From Opitutales bacterium (lineage in GTDB: Bacteria > Verrucomicrobiota > Verrucomicrobiia > Opitutales > UBA2995), in assembly GCA_965250065.1 (NCBI GenBank), contig OZ252288.1, positions 578,693 through 642,692 on the forward strand: a stretch of DNA of 64,000 nt. Direction: 5' to 3'. Shown piece after piece: positions 51,187 through 60,997 of this stretch. The notes beneath the pieces were generated by a model. That model saw nothing but the letters and a program-made list of their open reading frames with translations. It searched no databases and was not told the DNA's origin. How positions within the stretch are numbered: the first letter of the stretch is position 1; each line of letters opens with the position of its first letter. The translations under genes and the position numbers were made by a program.

Positions 51187-52440
51187 ATGAAAAAAGATTT
51201 CCCATTTCCTGAAACCGAGCTGCTGGCTCCCGCCGGTTGTTATCCTTCCCTTCAAGCGGGAATAGCCGCCGGTGCGGATGCGGTGTATTTTGGGTTGGCC
51301 CAATTAAACATGCGGGCCAGGTCGCGCCGGTCCTTCCATTTGCCTGATTTTCCGGAAATTATGAGCCGGTGCCGGGATGGAGGGGTAAAAGCCTGCCTGG
51401 CCCTGAACACCCTGCTTTATGACCACGACCTGAAACTGGTCTATAAGCTTTTGGACGCCGCCGCGGAGAATCGGGTTGACGCGGTCATTGCCTCCGACAT
51501 GGCATGCATTCAGCGGGCGCGTGAACTGGGCCTGGAAGTCCATCTTTCCACCCAACTTTCCGTTTCCAATTTTGAGTCGTTTAAGTTCTATACCCAATTT
51601 TGCGACCGTATCGTTCTGGCCCGTGAGTTGAACCTGAACATGATTCGCAAGCTTTATGAGCGCATTGTAGAGGAGGATTTACGGGGACCCGCTGGCCGGC
51701 AGGCGGAGATTGAAGCCTTTGCCCATGGGGCTTTGTGTGTTGCGGTTTCCGGACGCTGCGGCATGTCGTTATATACGGACAATGCTTCGGCCAACCGCGG
51801 GGCATGCATCCAGAACTGTCGGCGGGAGTACGACGTAGTAGACAAGGAAACCGGGCAAAAGCTTACCATTGACAACCACTTCGTCATGTCGCCCAACGAT
51901 ATTTCGACCATCGAGTTTCTCGATCAACTGCTGCGGTCCGGTATCAAAGTATTGAAAATCGAAGGCCGCGGACGCGCTCCCGAATATGTGCACACCGTAG
52001 TCACCGCTTACCGCAAGGCCATCGACGCGGTTCGGGCGGGAACCTACTCGCCCCAGTTTGTAGAAGCGTTGTTGAGAGACCTCAAGTCCGTCTACAATCG
52101 CGGGCTATCCTCCGGTTATTACCTGGGACGTGAGCAGGGTTGGTCAGCGCAATACGGATCAAAAGCCAGCAAGCAAAAGGTGCAAGTGGGCAAGGTAACG
52201 CATTTTTACAATAAGCTCAGCGTAGCCGAAATCACATCGACTGGCCATGTCTCGGTGGGAGACGAGTTTGTAATCGTCGGAAAGACCACGGGAGTAGTGG
52301 ATGGCAAGGTTGAAGAAATCCATCTGGACGAAGGCAAGGTGGAAACTGCCAAGCCCAAAGATGTATTTTCAATCCGAGTAGCCAAAAGGGTGCGAAAGAA
52401 TGATAAGGTTTATTTGATGGTTCCAGTCGTCGGCCCTTAG
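51187..52440 (+). CDS. Peptidase U32-family protein (TrhP/RlhA/UbiU-type hydroxylase family)
   Basis: Motifs: [62 protein letters not shown]. The start was set at the ATG at 51187 because the upstream part of the ORF is repeat sequence. Confidence 0.85.
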
Positions 52441-52460
52441 ATGCCTGCCTTTTTTACCCT

Positions 52461-52685
52461 ATGCTGCGCATCATTCATAAACCCCTGGAGTGTATCGGAT
52501 GCGGTCTATGTTGCGAGGTAGCTCCGAGCTACTGGTACATGAATGATGATGGCTTGGCTGAACTGCGTAATGTATTGTGGGTGAAGGACAATTTGCAGTT
52601 TGGGGAAGGTTGGGAAGAAGATGCCGAGGCGCTTCGTAAAGCGGAGGAAAGCTGTCCGGTAAACATTATTCGGATTGAAGGATAG
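52461..52685 (+). CDS. Small [4Fe-4S]/[3Fe-4S] ferredoxin
   Basis: 74-aa ORF with CIGCGLCCEVAP and a distal CPVNII cysteine. It begins 20 bp after the U32 gene. Confidence 0.75.
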   Translation: MLRIIHKPLECIGCGLCCEVAPSYWYMNDDGLAELRNVLWVKDNLQFGEGWEEDAEALRKAEESCPVNIIRIEG

Positions 52686-52873
52686 GATATAGCCGAACAT
52701 AACCGTGTAAAATTTTTGTTATGCCAGAAGTTTCTATCTATTGGTTTGGACGATACATCGTTTCTATTTACTTGCCAGCTTGCCATGCTGCAACGGCGTT
52801 GTTCGGGCATTTCTTCGTTTTCCTGGTTTTGCAGCCAGGAAAGTAGTCTTCAAAGTTAGATTGTCTCCATTCG

Positions 52874-58250: not shown

Positions 58251-59267
58251 ATGGCAAAATCACTCACTGAACAATGCCGGGAAGAAGCCCTCAACCTGGG
58301 CTTTGATCTCTGTGGTTTTGCCTCCATAGAGGTGAATTTGCGGAAGGAATTTTACCGGCAATGGATTGAGGATGGCCAGCATGGCACCATGACCTGGATG
58401 GAACACAACAACGATCGTCGTCTCGATCCTGCTAAAATTATCCCCGGAGCCCGATCCATTGTCATGGTTGGATTAAACTATTTCCAGCCCGAGCCGGAGA
58501 TGCGGGGCCGCATAGCCAAATATGCCCTGGGCAGGGACTATCACAAGTTGATGTATAAGCGCCTTAAAAAACTGTGCGCCTGGATGCGGGAGCGGGGTGG
58601 GGCACAAAAACCTTATGTCGATACCGGACCCGTCCTGGAAAAACCTATCGCGGTTGAGGCCGGACTTGGGTGGTTGAGTAAAAATACGCTGCTTCTGCAC
58701 CGAAAGTTTGGGACCTGGTTATTTTTGGGAACCGTGGTAACTACGCTCGAATTCGAGCCGGATCCGGTTGAATCAGACCACTGCGGCAGTTGTAGGCGTT
58801 GCCTGGACGTCTGTCCTACCGATGCCTTCCCGGCGCCGTATCAACTGGATGCCTCGCGTTGTATTTCTTACCTTACAATCGAGCACCAGGGCTCCATACC
58901 TTTGGAGTTTCGGGAAGCTATTGGTGACCGGATATTTGGTTGCGACGATTGTCTCGACGTATGTCCATGGAATCGATGGGCGCAAACCACCCGAGAGTCC
59001 AAGTTCCTGTTTCCCGGATTGCCGGACTTGCGTGAAACGCTCAGTTGGACGGATGCGGACTTTACCCGACGTTTTCAGGGCACGCCCCTGGCACGTTTGA
59101 AACTGCCTCGCTGGAAGCGCAATGTTTGTGTGGTGTTGGGAAATATTGGGGCCGAGTCGGATCTCCCCGCGCTCGAAATCTTGGCCCAGGGCAGTGACCC
59201 GATGGTTGCTGAACATGCCAAATGGGCGATTGAGAGCATTTCTTCACGACTTGTCAGCGCGACATGA
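58251..59267 (+). CDS. queG: Epoxyqueuosine reductase (cobalamin/4Fe-4S)
   Basis: Motifs: GRIAKYALGRDYHK, CGSCRRCLDVCPTDAF, CISYLTIEH, GCDDCLDVCPWN. Confidence 0.9.
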   Translation: MAKSLTEQCREEALNLGFDLCGFASIEVNLRKEFYRQWIEDGQHGTMTWMEHNNDRRLDPAKIIPGARSIVMVGLNYFQPEPEMRGRIAKYALGRDYHKLMYKRLKKLCAWMRERGGAQKPYVDTGPVLEKPIAVEAGLGWLSKNTLLLHRKFGTWLFLGTVVTTLEFEPDPVESDHCGSCRRCLDVCPTDAFPAPYQLDASRCISYLTIEHQGSIPLEFREAIGDRIFGCDDCLDVCPWNRWAQTTRESKFLFPGLPDLRETLSWTDADFTRRFQGTPLARLKLPRWKRNVCVVLGNIGAESDLPALEILAQGSDPMVAEHAKWAIESISSRLVSAT

Positions 59268-59992
59268 GCAAGGATGATTTATACGTGAATCTGAAAGCTG
59301 AGCCGGTCCCCTTTGTGTTCGATAAACAGGTGGCGGACGTTTTCCAGGACATGATCGAGCGGTCAGTGCCGGGCTACGAGATGTCTCTGTCGATGATATC
59401 GTTAATTTCCCGGCGCTACGCCCGGTCGAGAACCAGGGGGTACGATCTGGGATGTTCTCTGGGAGCGTCCAGCCTCGCTCTGGTTTGGGACCACCCCAAA
59501 CCGGATTTCAGCTTGGTGGGAGTGGATAACTCCGCTGACATGCTGAAACGATGCACCTTCAATCTCGAGCAGGCCAACCTGCCATGTGAATGGGAATTGT
59601 GGTGGGAGGATATATTGGATGCGCCTATCGAAAATGCATCGATTGTAGTTCTCAATTATACGCTTCAATTTATTCCCTGCGAACGACGATTGGAGCTATT
59701 GAAAAAGATCCATGCGGGACTTGTTCCCGGCGGGGTTTTGTTAGTGTCGGAAAAAATGGCCTTGGCGGCGCCCCGTATGCAGAAATCCATGATGGATTTG
59801 CATCACGACTTTAAGCGGGCTAACGGTTACAGCAACCTGGAGATCAGTCGGAAACGGGACGCGCTGGAAAATGTCTTAATTCCCGAAACAATTGAGCAAC
59901 ACGAGGACCGGTTGAGCAAGTCCGGTTTTACCCAGGTTAGCCAGTGGTTTCAGTGCTTTAATTTTGCCTCGTTAGTCGCGTTTAAAGATTAA
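59264..59992 (+). CDS. cmoA: Carboxy-S-adenosyl-L-methionine synthase
   Basis: 242-aa ORF. Motifs: FDKQVADVFQDMIERSVPGYE, YDLGCSLGAS, VLNYTLQFIP, HHDFKRANGYSNLEISRKR. It overlaps queG by 4 bp. Confidence 0.9.
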   Translation: MSKDDLYVNLKAEPVPFVFDKQVADVFQDMIERSVPGYEMSLSMISLISRRYARSRTRGYDLGCSLGASSLALVWDHPKPDFSLVGVDNSADMLKRCTFNLEQANLPCEWELWWEDILDAPIENASIVVLNYTLQFIPCERRLELLKKIHAGLVPGGVLLVSEKMALAAPRMQKSMMDLHHDFKRANGYSNLEISRKRDALENVLIPETIEQHEDRLSKSGFTQVSQWFQCFNFASLVAFKD

Positions 59993-60016
59993 TTAAACTG
60001 CTCTAATATTGCGGCT

Positions 60017-60997
60017 TTGAGTCTGCTCGATTACAGTCCTTTATACAAATCCTTGCACGGTTCTGCCTTGGAAGGCTGGGTAGCCGATTTGAGACGATTG
60101 ATTAAGGCTAATATCGAGAATTCGACAGATGGACATATGGATGACTGGCTCGGAGCGCTGGCCTCCTTGCCTGCCTTTAAATGCCAATCATACGATCTCA
60201 CGGAGGGGGTTAGATTTGAAGGATCCGCCGTCGACATCGATTTGAGGCAGCTCCTGAAGCGATTTCATCCCTGGCGCAAGGGACCCTTGAAGATCGGCAA
60301 CGTGGAAATCGACACGGAGTGGCGGTCGGATTGGAAGTGGGACAGGCTCAAGAACGAAATCTCCAACCTGGAAGGTCGGCGGGTACTGGACGTCGGTTGT
60401 GGAAACGGCTATTACCTCTGGCGCATGGTGGGTAAGGGAGCGGAACTGGCACTGGGGATCGACCCTTACATGTTGTATGTCATGCAGTTTTGGGCCACCA
60501 AACATTTCGCGCCCGGAGAGCTTCCGGCTTGGGTGCTGCCAATGGGCTGGGAAGAATTGCCCGATATGCTGCCCCATTTCGATACCGTTTTTGCCATGGG
60601 AGTACTTTACCATCGCAAAAAGCACGGCCGGTTCCTGCAACAACTGCAAAACTACCTTAGGCCCGGTGGTGAGTTGGTTTTGGAAACTCTTGTTACGCAA
60701 GGAAACGAGGATGACATCCTGGTTCCGGATGGCCGCTACGCCAAAATGCGCAATGTACATTTTATCCCCAGCGCAGCCGCGCTGGAAACGGCCCTGAAAG
60801 AATCCGGTTGGCAAAATGTTCGGTGCGTTGACGTTACCCCGACTACCATTAAGGAACAGCGTTCCACCGATTGGATGACGTTTGAATCCCTGTCCGATTT
60901 TCTCGATCCCCTTGACCCCAGGTTCACGGTTGAGGGCTATCCCGCACCGCAACGGGCTATTTTCCTGGCGAACAGGGAAGTGAGATATGCGGGTTAA
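60017..60997 (+). CDS. cmoB: tRNA U34 carboxymethyltransferase
   Basis: 326-aa ORF with a TTG start. Motifs: FHPWRKGPLKIGNVEIDTEWRSDWKWDRL, VLDVGCGNGYY, GYPAPQRAIFLA. The last six codons and the stop lie in a family A terminus. Confidence 0.9.
   Translation: MSLLDYSPLYKSLHGSALEGWVADLRRLIKANIENSTDGHMDDWLGALASLPAFKCQSYDLTEGVRFEGSAVDIDLRQLLKRFHPWRKGPLKIGNVEIDTEWRSDWKWDRLKNEISNLEGRRVLDVGCGNGYYLWRMVGKGAELALGIDPYMLYVMQFWATKHFAPGELPAWVLPMGWEELPDMLPHFDTVFAMGVLYHRKKHGRFLQQLQNYLRPGGELVLETLVTQGNEDDILVPDGRYAKMRNVHFIPSAAALETALKESGWQNVRCVDVTPTTIKEQRSTDWMTFESLSDFLDPLDPRFTVEGYPAPQRAIFLANREVRYAG

Follow-up and report, generated by a model that had tools for sequence, protein, structure and literature searches.

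Why do eleven genes linked to modification of the tRNA wobble base stand together within 10 kb of one bacterial genome, and what is the part of an uncharacterised U32-family protein among them? The locus belongs to a marine Opitutales bacterium with a genome of 4.54 Mb and lies in the 64,000-nucleotide stretch of DNA analysed here (the window). Gene order and orientation had been proposed by an initial annotation made from the letters alone, and all eleven genes were found where it had placed them (Table 1). Seven of them (tgt, queA, queF, queC, queG, cmoA and cmoB) pass the NCBIfam equivalog cut-offs. The scores of queD (52 bits in TIGR03367, cut-off 89) and queE are under the respective cut-offs and both genes have the diagnostic motifs; the place of queE within the queC-queD-queE unit is also kept in related loci. 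QueF carries its catalytic Cys motif as well as the ELKSYK motif. As for gene starts, the open frame of the U32 gene extends back to 51034 and homology to relatives begins near residue 47-52, while queC likely starts at the ATG at 57610, which would give a protein of 233 aa, the length of its homologues.

Table 1. Genes and repeat-bearing spacers of the cluster, in window coordinates
Feature	Position	Strand	Evidence
U32-family Fe-S protein, 417 aa	51187..52440	+	PF01136 220 bits
Single-cluster ferredoxin, 74 aa, CxxCxxC...CP	52461..52685	+	Fer4_13, Fer4_15 matches
tgt, tRNA-guanine(34) transglycosylase	52874..53995	+	TIGR00430 423.7 bits, cut-off 306.75
queA, SAM:tRNA ribosyltransferase-isomerase	53967..55028	+	NF001140 449.5 bits, cut-off 324
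queF, unimodular (type II) preQ0 reductase	55115..55459	+	TIGR03139 153 bits, cut-off 86.9
Convergent queF/queE spacer, dispersed repeat modules	55460..55807		14-mers up to 113 copies genome-wide
queE, radical-SAM CDG synthase	55808..56488	-	QueE models best, 102 bits, under cut-offs; CxxxCxxC
queD, CPH4 synthase	56479..56907	-	PF01242 87 bits; CxxxHGH
queC, preQ0 synthase	56909..57643	-	TIGR00364 200 bits, cut-off 150.3
MITE-like composite insertion, 466 bp, divergent queC/queG promoter region	57723..58188		flanking direct repeat
queG, cobalamin/Fe-S epoxyqueuosine reductase	58245 (or 58251)..59267	+	TIGR00276 375 bits, cut-off 200
cmoA, carboxy-SAM synthase	59264..59992	+	TIGR00740 260 bits, cut-off 193
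cmoB, tRNA U34 carboxymethyltransferase	60017..60997	+	TIGR00452 406 bits, cut-off 275

Our best explanation of the whole, to which we give a probability of roughly 0.6, is a lineage-specific super-cluster of wobble-modification genes that includes a putative U32-ferredoxin hydroxylase and serves two branches. In the first, FolE2, encoded outside the cluster, would make H2NTP, and QueD, QueE, QueC and QueF would convert it to preQ1. In the tRNAs for Asn, Asp, His and Tyr, Tgt would then replace G34 by preQ1, and QueA and QueG would finish queuosine. In the separate second branch, the U32 Fe-S enzyme, paired for electron transfer with its own ferredoxin, would hydroxylate U34 to ho5U; CmoA would provide carboxy-SAM and CmoB would turn ho5U into cmo5U. 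The queuosine route from CPH4 synthesis to oQ reduction is indeed complete in the cluster, as had been proposed, with gene identities verified by profile and motif. The GTP cyclohydrolase step, rightly noted as missing from the cluster, is encoded elsewhere: a search for folE found no type-I FolE in the whole genome and, 3.2 Mb away at position 3,827,417, a FolE2/GCYH-IB gene. The substrate tRNAs are all present in the genome, and no CNN isoacceptor was found for Ala and Val tRNAs.

The genes occupy both strands and make up at least four transcription units, packed as U32-ferredoxin and tgt-queA-queF rightwards, queC-queD-queE leftwards and queG-cmoA-cmoB rightwards. Neighbouring genes overlap at tgt/queA, at queE/queD and at queG/cmoA, where the ATG of cmoA, read from the sequence, overlaps the queG stop by 4 bp (ATGA). 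The latter overlap is the single direct link between the two pathways. The same enzymes and the same blocks (tgt-queA, queC-queD-queE, cmoA-cmoB) are familiar from known operons: B. subtilis has queCDEF (ykvJKLM) and queA-tgt, E. coli has queA-tgt and cmoA-cmoB. There are important differences. Firstly, the window joins all the blocks, together with queF, queG and U32-ferredoxin, within 10 kb. Secondly, its queG forms one unit with cmoA-cmoB. Thirdly, a riboswitch search of the cluster found none, the preQ1 riboswitch included. The grouping may give coordinated expression; the spread of the units over both strands and the lack of a riboswitch speak against it.

The expectation that relatives share the arrangement held within the window's own family and failed beyond the family boundary. 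The order U32-ferredoxin-tgt-queA-queF / queE-(queD)-queC / queG is identical in six of seven related MAG loci, the seventh ending inside U32, and the same order occurs in G044, G071, G093, G114 and L151, the last of which additionally has queG-cmoA-cmoB. Among 110 sampled genomes from 39 other Opitutales families, no cluster partners were found near tgt, apart from two genomes with queA and one with queF. The individual genes are ordinary; what is limited to a single bacterial family is their grouping, and we suggest that it would have been assembled in an ancestor of that family.

The least stable part of the cluster is cmoA-cmoB. Both genes are absent genome-wide from all four closest relatives tested, where U32-ferredoxin is kept, and none of the six further species sampled in the window's genus has cmoB. 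Only cmoB comes after queG in the sister genus; in genus g2, cmoA and queD are relocated elsewhere; in other Opitutales with cmoB, the two genes form a free-standing pair. The cmoA-cmoB module is probably dispensable and was probably lost in the sister species.

Such freedom of loss and movement (cmoA-cmoB in the window's genus, cmoA and queD in g2) is also what neutral rearrangement would predict. In that case small operons (tgt-queA, queCDE(F), cmoAB, U32-ferredoxin) simply became neighbours, nothing selects against it and the order has no regulatory meaning. The number of units, their distribution over both strands without a shared riboswitch, the tolerance of long mobile-repeat insertions in the spacers and the scattering of the same genes in the 39 other families with no sign of harm all agree with such a history. 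We nevertheless consider it unlikely, because the order persists down to 57-70% protein identity across the conserved loci, i.e. it is kept over substantial divergence, and because queG either shows translational coupling with cmoA or has cmoB as its next gene, which puts both pathways on one transcript. Moreover, chance assembly of eleven related genes is negligible: for eleven specific genes in 10 kb of 4.54 Mb, a rough estimate is ~11 x (10/4537)^10, i.e. <1e-25.

The spacers at 55460-55807 and 57611-58250 had been described as repeat-filled interruptions of the cluster. Repeats are present in them, but they are mobile repeats of the whole genome and not a feature of the cluster. The 14-mers of the spacers have 50-300 copies genome-wide, those of the 57723..58188 insertion 50-293. 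This MITE-like insertion is flanked by an exact 10-bp direct repeat, TTGGCAACTT, at 57713 and 58189, and its ends are inverted copies of AACCCGCAT. In the relative L005 the spacers measure 15-25 bp each, and that between queF and queE just 15 bp. Within the super-cluster reading, we propose that the spacers were probably inflated later by mobile repeats in the window's genus.

Another possible origin of the cluster is lateral: an acquired queuosine part might have replaced native scattered genes, making the cluster partly a foreign island. This could account for Tgt of the family being only ~44% identical (median) to Tgt of the 110 other Opitutales, 63% identical to that of a few Puniceicoccaceae-like genomes with a tgt-queA pair and ~50% identical to Firmicutes, Planctomycetota and other Tgt, although this identity comparison covers Tgt alone. 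GC content (0.47-0.56) is, however, uniform with the flanks, there is no integrase or tRNA gene at the cluster borders, and the search for a donor sharing this consolidated order found none. The U32-ferredoxin pair is moreover native to the order, with 63-74% identity in four other families. We therefore regard the lateral origin as doubtful and keep assembly within the family as the preferred reading.

The U32 gene is the sole one of its kind in the genome, and its product had been labelled TrhP-like. TrhP (E. coli YegQ) is a prephenate-dependent tRNA U34 hydroxylase (PMC6599085). The two proteins are similar in length (417 aa in the window protein, 453 aa in TrhP) and share the succession of U32 domain and C-terminal domain and the essential Glu and Cys residues (E162, C170, C177, C193 and C197 of TrhP), and the window genome, too, needs ho5U for CmoB. 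The label is too strong all the same: the window protein is only 28% identical to TrhP and scores 193 bits in the TrhP equivalog model, whose cut-off is 534. In the tree, E. coli TrhP joins YegQ-type proteins of other Opitutales (G065, G088, G058) and the window U32 stays outside; at every locus examined, moreover, it has a small ferredoxin of its own beside it. TrhP orthology was thus rejected. Reassignment to RlhA or UbiU, which the initial annotation had envisaged, did not occur either. RlhA is rejected by the absence of the DUF3656 domain, and UbiU/UbiV by scores below their cut-offs, the single U32 gene in the genome and the lack of UbiT.

The match of the window protein to Peptidase_U32_C is weak (18 bits, E = 0.003). 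Judged by sequence, it is a short U32 of a separate clade with a weak U32_C tail. In the U32 classification of Kimura 2017 and Sakai 2019, short U32s of Coraliomargarita akajimensis, Akkermansia and Lentisphaera belong to PepU32#4, the type of P. gingivalis PrtC, to which no RNA-modification function is assigned (PMC5727448, PMC6599085). The window U32 probably belongs to the same subfamily, as judged through a congener: its orthologue in Coraliomargarita parva is 72% identical, and C. akajimensis is classed there. Neither the ferredoxin pairing nor the link to tRNA genes is described for PepU32#4 in the literature surveyed.

The ferredoxin gene follows the U32 gene after 20 bp. Among solved structures, its product is closest to single-cluster ferredoxins of Pyrococcus and Thermotoga. 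The gene adjoins the U32 orthologue in all seven lineages examined (family f1, G019, G112, C. parva, Pelagicoccus mobilis, L151 and G114), the adjacency being seen at loci L003-L006 and L008-L009 and in the six lineages listed after f1; C. parva shows a 4-bp overlap between the two. We presume that the ferredoxin is the dedicated electron partner of U32. In E. coli, the ferredoxin YfhL reportedly helps YegQ-dependent synthesis of ho5U (Lauhon 2019, J Bacteriol), so that a small ferredoxin alongside a U32 protein in tRNA hydroxylation has a parallel. YfhL is nevertheless a two-cluster protein of 86 aa encoded far from yegQ, whereas the window ferredoxin has 74 aa and a single cluster and is encoded immediately 3´ of U32.

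Which enzyme, then, makes ho5U? Of the cmo5U pathway as initially proposed, the identities of cmoA and cmoB stand and the hydroxylation candidate is not a TrhP orthologue. Since CmoA and CmoB are intact, some enzyme must produce ho5U. TrhO was found neither in the window genome (tblastn; PF17773 profile) nor in any of the 14 genomes sampled from genera g1 and g2, and the window genome has no YegQ-type TrhP. With CmoA and CmoB present and without TrhO, YegQ-type TrhP or a second U32, the U32-ferredoxin pair is by elimination the best candidate ho5U34 hydroxylase, an assignment we favour slightly. Among 401 genomes, 22 are cmoB-positive and every one of these has TrhO or a U32; in members of family f1 with surveyed U32 complement, the pair is the sole hydroxylase candidate.

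The pair might instead be unrelated to xo5U and act on another substrate, for example a different tRNA base, a small molecule or, like RlhA, an rRNA cytidine; its place beside tgt would then be accidental, and another enzyme would supply ho5U to CmoB. We find this possible and rather improbable. The separate clade and the failed TrhP cut-off speak for it, and so does the distribution of the pair, which is kept in sister species without cmoA and cmoB. This U32 clade was found in 30 genomes, of which 24 are without cmoB and the remaining six all belong to one family; in lineages other than family f1 (G019, G112, C. parva), the pair has unrelated genes around it. Akkermansia, similarly, has PepU32#4 without cmoA, cmoB and trmR (supplementary data, PMC6599085). 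TrhO co-occurs with this U32 clade in 12 of the 30 genomes; there is therefore no general complementarity of the two, which also counts against the hydroxylase assignment. However, TrhO is far commoner in the order than CmoB (172 vs 22 of 401 genomes), so a hydroxylase without CmoB is normal and says little. An rRNA role of RlhA type is without domain support because DUF3656 is absent, and an accidental position has to be reconciled with a U32 gene that stays beside ten wobble-modification genes in at least two genera. Furthermore, CmoA and CmoB are present in a genome with no TrhO, TrhP or other U32. We thus return to the U32-ferredoxin pair as the candidate hydroxylase: the grouping of these genes suggests a role for an uncharacterised U32 enzyme and its small ferredoxin.

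The genes of the cluster are known ones, and their grouping is real and specific to one family. All eleven genes named in the initial annotation (a U32-family gene, a ferredoxin gene, tgt, queA, queF, the oppositely oriented queE-queD-queC, queG, cmoA and cmoB) were recovered at their places by ORF listing and profile searches. Equivalog cut-offs are passed by Tgt (423.7 bits, NCBIfam cut-off 306.75), QueA (449.5 bits, cut-off 324), type-II QueF (153 bits, 86.9), QueC (200 bits, 150.3), QueG (375 bits, 200), CmoA (260.3 bits, 193.3) and CmoB (406.2 bits, 275). QueD (CPH4 synthase) and QueE (CDG synthase) have the models of these names as their top matches at 52 and 102 bits, against equivalog cut-offs of 89 and 200, respectively; their CxxxHGH and CxxxCxxC motifs are present, and in relatives both genes keep their place in a queC-queD-queE unit, between queC and the convergent queF. 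The start proposed for the U32 gene (Table), which yields a protein of 417 aa, is correct: its frame is open further upstream, but relatives align only from residue 47-52 on. The GTP cyclohydrolase step had been noted as missing from the cluster, and it is indeed encoded outside it. In the genome, a single contig of 4.54 Mb, the sole GTP cyclohydrolase I is a FolE2 protein (GCYH-IB; PF02649, 232.6 bits), whose gene lies 3.2 Mb away; a profile search of the genome found no type-I FolE.

The queuosine and cmo5U pathways are most firmly joined in the queG-cmoA(-cmoB) unit, where the stop codon of queG overlaps the start codon of cmoA (4 bp, ATGA). Overlaps occur also at tgt/queA and queE/queD. 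The coordinated control of wobble decoding at which the initial annotation hinted is still a hypothesis. An Rfam scan of the interval 48-64 kb of the window found neither a preQ1 nor any other riboswitch, and a scan for consensus promoters and terminators gave counts not above those of shuffled sequence.

How far is this arrangement conserved? A search for relatives gave seven MAG loci whose U32 proteins are 82-89% identical to that of the window. Six of them keep the order U32-ferredoxin-tgt-queA-queF / queE-(queD)-queC / queG, and the seventh stops within the U32 gene. The same cluster order is present in a complete genome of the sister genus (G114) and on a further contig (L151), the latter including queG-cmoA-cmoB. 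To look beyond the family, we sampled the order evenly (121 genomes, 41 families) and retrieved the region from -6 to +14 kb around tgt for 114 of the genomes. Partners stand beside tgt solely in the window's family. In 110 genomes from 39 other families tgt is alone, except for two with queA and one with queF beside it. The consolidation is thus real and inherited, yet confined to one family; the expectation of a conserved arrangement holds for the family and fails in the 39 other families of Opitutales. In two loci of the sister genus (G114 and L008), queD is absent between queE and queC, and cmoA is on another contig, so the cluster is already being dismantled, in ways that differ between genera.

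The cmo5U half has a distribution of its own. Neither cmoA nor cmoB was found genome-wide in the four closest relatives tested. In their long contigs the interval from queG to a sulfatase gene is directly visible, and it contains only repeats and no cmoA or cmoB remnants. Across the order, cmoB is present in 22 of 401 sampled genomes. It occurs in six of the seven genomes of the sister genus, always after queG, and in one of the seven of the window's genus, which is the window genome itself. Among nine cmoB loci elsewhere in the order, cmoA is beside or near cmoB in six, and queG is near cmoB in none. With the sister genus and contig L151 as outgroups, parsimony favours an ancestral queG-cmoA-cmoB unit that was later lost; as the sister species hold no remnants, the choice of loss over gain rests on this outgroup argument.

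The spacers of the cluster were described as repeat-filled. Repeats are there, both in the two flagged spacers and in those upstream of the U32 gene, where 14-mers occur that are present 50-300 times across the genome. They are no feature of the cluster, though: the same junctions in a relative (L005) are 15-150 bp long. One insertion is a MITE-like composite (Table), in which CGTCGGGGTCATTCC units in tandem are combined with three TCTAGGTTTGACCCCTT modules and six TTCCTAA heptamers; its ends carry AACCCGCAT in inverted orientation, and it is flanked by a target duplication, TTGGCAACTT, that is exact over 10 bp. The spacer repeats were inserted later by mobile elements of the genome and lie outside the design of the cluster. 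Rfam hits to the plant and animal miRNA precursor models MIR162_1, mir-463 and mir-4798 were rejected as false positives caused by perfect palindromic repeats.

Table. Coordinates of the features discussed in the text
Feature	Sequence	Coordinates	Remark
U32 gene, start	window	51187	frame open from 51034
MITE-like composite, 466 bp	window	57713-58198	coordinates include flanking repeats; queC/queG divergent promoter region
Palindromic repeats hit by Rfam microRNA models	window	48568-48660; 50954-51023	~150 copies genome-wide
FolE2 gene	C1	3827417-3828217	
U32-ferredoxin pair and tgt of Pelagicoccus mobilis	L150	6468-11519	

As for the origin of the cluster, the Tgt protein of the family is only distantly similar to its counterparts in 110 other Opitutales (median identity ~44%). 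Identity is 63% with Tgt of a few Puniceicoccaceae-like genomes, which bear a tgt-queA pair, and about 50% with the proteins of Firmicutes, Planctomycetota and other phyla. These identities could reflect a xenologous tgt-queA pair or a strong acceleration of rate. The genes of the nearest Tgt homologues outside the family stand in tgt-queA, in tgt-queA-queH or by themselves, and neither a donor nor another lineage that shares the consolidated order came to light among them. The U32-ferredoxin module, on the other hand, is clearly native to the order. The distant Tgt next to a native module suggests mosaic assembly of the cluster, possibly including a foreign tgt-queA, as far as can be judged from Tgt alone.

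For the U32 protein, the label "TrhP-like" given initially is too strong and should be replaced. The cluster gene is the sole U32 gene in the genome, and its product lies at similar distances from the paralogues of E. coli: 36% identical to RlhA (N-terminal half), 31% to UbiU and 28% to TrhP (full length). On the model NF011996 for TrhP, the enzyme whose formation of ho5U34 depends on prephenate, it reaches 192.9 bits against a cut-off of 534; E. coli TrhP scores 875 and a YegQ-type Opitutales protein from the sampled genome G065 scores 378. In a maximum-likelihood tree, whose deep placements are uncertain due to long E. coli branches, E. coli TrhP groups with proteins of G065, G088 and G058, and the window protein falls in a separate clade of short Opitutales U32 proteins. 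The reassignment to RlhA or UbiU that had been envisaged did not materialize either. DUF3656 beside the U32 domain is the hallmark of RlhA, the 23S rRNA ho5C2501 synthase (PMC5727448); the window protein has no PF12392 (DUF3656) match even at E <= 10, and E. coli RlhA gives 74 bits with the same model. UbiU and UbiV, the anaerobic ubiquinone hydroxylase, are a pair of U32 proteins that go with UbiT. The Ubi models yield 159 bits against 440 for UbiU and 48 against 275 for UbiV, a single U32 gene is present, and tblastn with E. coli queries found no match to UbiT or UbiV in the genome.

In TrhP a Peptidase_U32 domain precedes a Peptidase_U32_C domain. In the window protein PF01136 (Peptidase_U32) matches with 220 bits. 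PF16325 (Peptidase_U32_C) matches below threshold (18 bits, E = 0.003, cut-off 28.2), and this match lies where it is expected and spans positions 6-80 of 83. Residues E162, C170 and C177 are essential in TrhP (PMC6599085), and E176, C184 and C191 of the window protein align with them; a downstream CxxxC aligns with C193 and C197. Given that this Glu and all four Cys, essential in TrhP as well as in RlhA, are retained, the window protein is predicted to belong with these two among the Fe-S hydroxylases of one mechanistic class. Sakai et al. (Supplementary Data 1, PMC6599085) assign short U32 proteins to PepU32#4 in Coraliomargarita akajimensis, Akkermansia and Lentisphaera. Since these PVC proteins carry that label and the window protein shares 72% identity with its Coraliomargarita parva orthologue, it likely belongs to PepU32#4 (PrtC-type) as well. 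A sequence search found no solved structures for it.

The U32 and ferredoxin genes are a conserved module, which stands beside tgt in the window's family only. Orthologues of the U32 protein (63-89% identity) were found in 30 of 401 sampled genomes from five families, and they are set off by an identity gap, other short U32 proteins being at most 51% identical. The ferredoxin gene follows directly 3´ of the U32 gene in every lineage examined, i.e. in the window's family, genomes G019 and G112, C. parva (where the two genes overlap by 4 bp) and P. mobilis; outside the family the neighbourhoods are otherwise unrelated. In P. mobilis, 2.4 kb of DNA that hold four unrelated genes separate the pair from tgt, which is divergently oriented; this proximity may be independent or an ancestral loose association. 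The 74-aa ferredoxin is a single-cluster protein of Pyrococcus/Thermotoga type and thus differs from the two-cluster YfhL of E. coli. YfhL was reportedly linked to YegQ (TrhP) by Lauhon in 2019. Our full-text literature searches gave no match for YfhL with YegQ or ho5U, nor for TrhP with ferredoxin and U32.

We suggest that the U32-ferredoxin pair is a candidate ho5U34 hydroxylase, a reading to which we assign a probability of about 55%. CmoA and CmoB, which need ho5U, are intact in the window genome. A known U34 hydroxylase was sought there and not found: TrhO is absent (no PF17773 match; tblastn with E. coli TrhO gave only a weak rhodanese hit, E = 8e-4), and the single U32 protein is not a TrhP orthologue. 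TrhO is likewise missing from all 14 sampled genomes of the window's genus and its sister, and among the 22 genomes with cmoB there is none that lacks both TrhO and a U32 protein. Several observations speak against this role. The pair is retained where cmoA-cmoB was lost, most of its carriers, C. parva and P. mobilis among them, have no cmoB, and TrhO is also present in 12 of 30 carriers in the 401-genome sample. General complementarity between the pair and TrhO, which the 121-genome sample seemed to offer (TrhO in 0 of 7 carriers), was therefore discarded. The objection from missing cmoB is weakened by TrhO itself: with 172 of 401 Opitutales genomes against 22 for CmoB, it is eight times commoner, so a U34 hydroxylase without CmoB is normal in this order. 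In most TrhO carriers ho5U is presumably the end product, or else it is processed further by a different enzyme, e.g. a TrmR-like methyltransferase.

Two side observations concern the same pathway. Firstly, G230, a fragmented MAG (320 contigs) from genus g81, is the sole sampled family member with TrhO. Neither a U32 match of the window type nor cmoB is present in it, the reverse of the situation in the window's genus and its sister. Secondly, the 44 tRNA genes of the window genome (aragorn) provide only GGC and UGC isoacceptors for Ala and only GAC and UAC for Val. With no CNN isoacceptor for these amino acids, GCG and GUG codons depend on U34 tRNAs that xo5U would help. For Pro, Ser, Thr and Leu, CNN isoacceptors are also present.

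All enzymes of the cluster except the U32-ferredoxin pair are textbook ones, and hence the cluster adds nothing to the understanding of queuosine and cmo5U synthesis. The value lies in guilt by association: a U32 subfamily still to be characterised is found, together with the ferredoxin dedicated to it, among ten wobble-modification genes, in a genome that needs ho5U and has no known hydroxylase for it. The cluster is also a clean example of the assembly of a functional super-cluster and its subsequent decay, as it was built in one family, and then cmoA-cmoB were lost and mobile repeats invaded within a single genus. The role of PrtC-type U32 proteins thereby becomes a directly testable question. 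Tentatively, we propose that the short-U32 clade with single-cluster ferredoxin, probably PepU32#4, might represent a third kind of tRNA U34 C5-hydroxylase, which would bring along an electron donor and, in genomes such as this one, would alone supply ho5U. If true, a large U32 subfamily of wide distribution, still annotated as protease ("PrtC collagenase" type), would thereby acquire a function.
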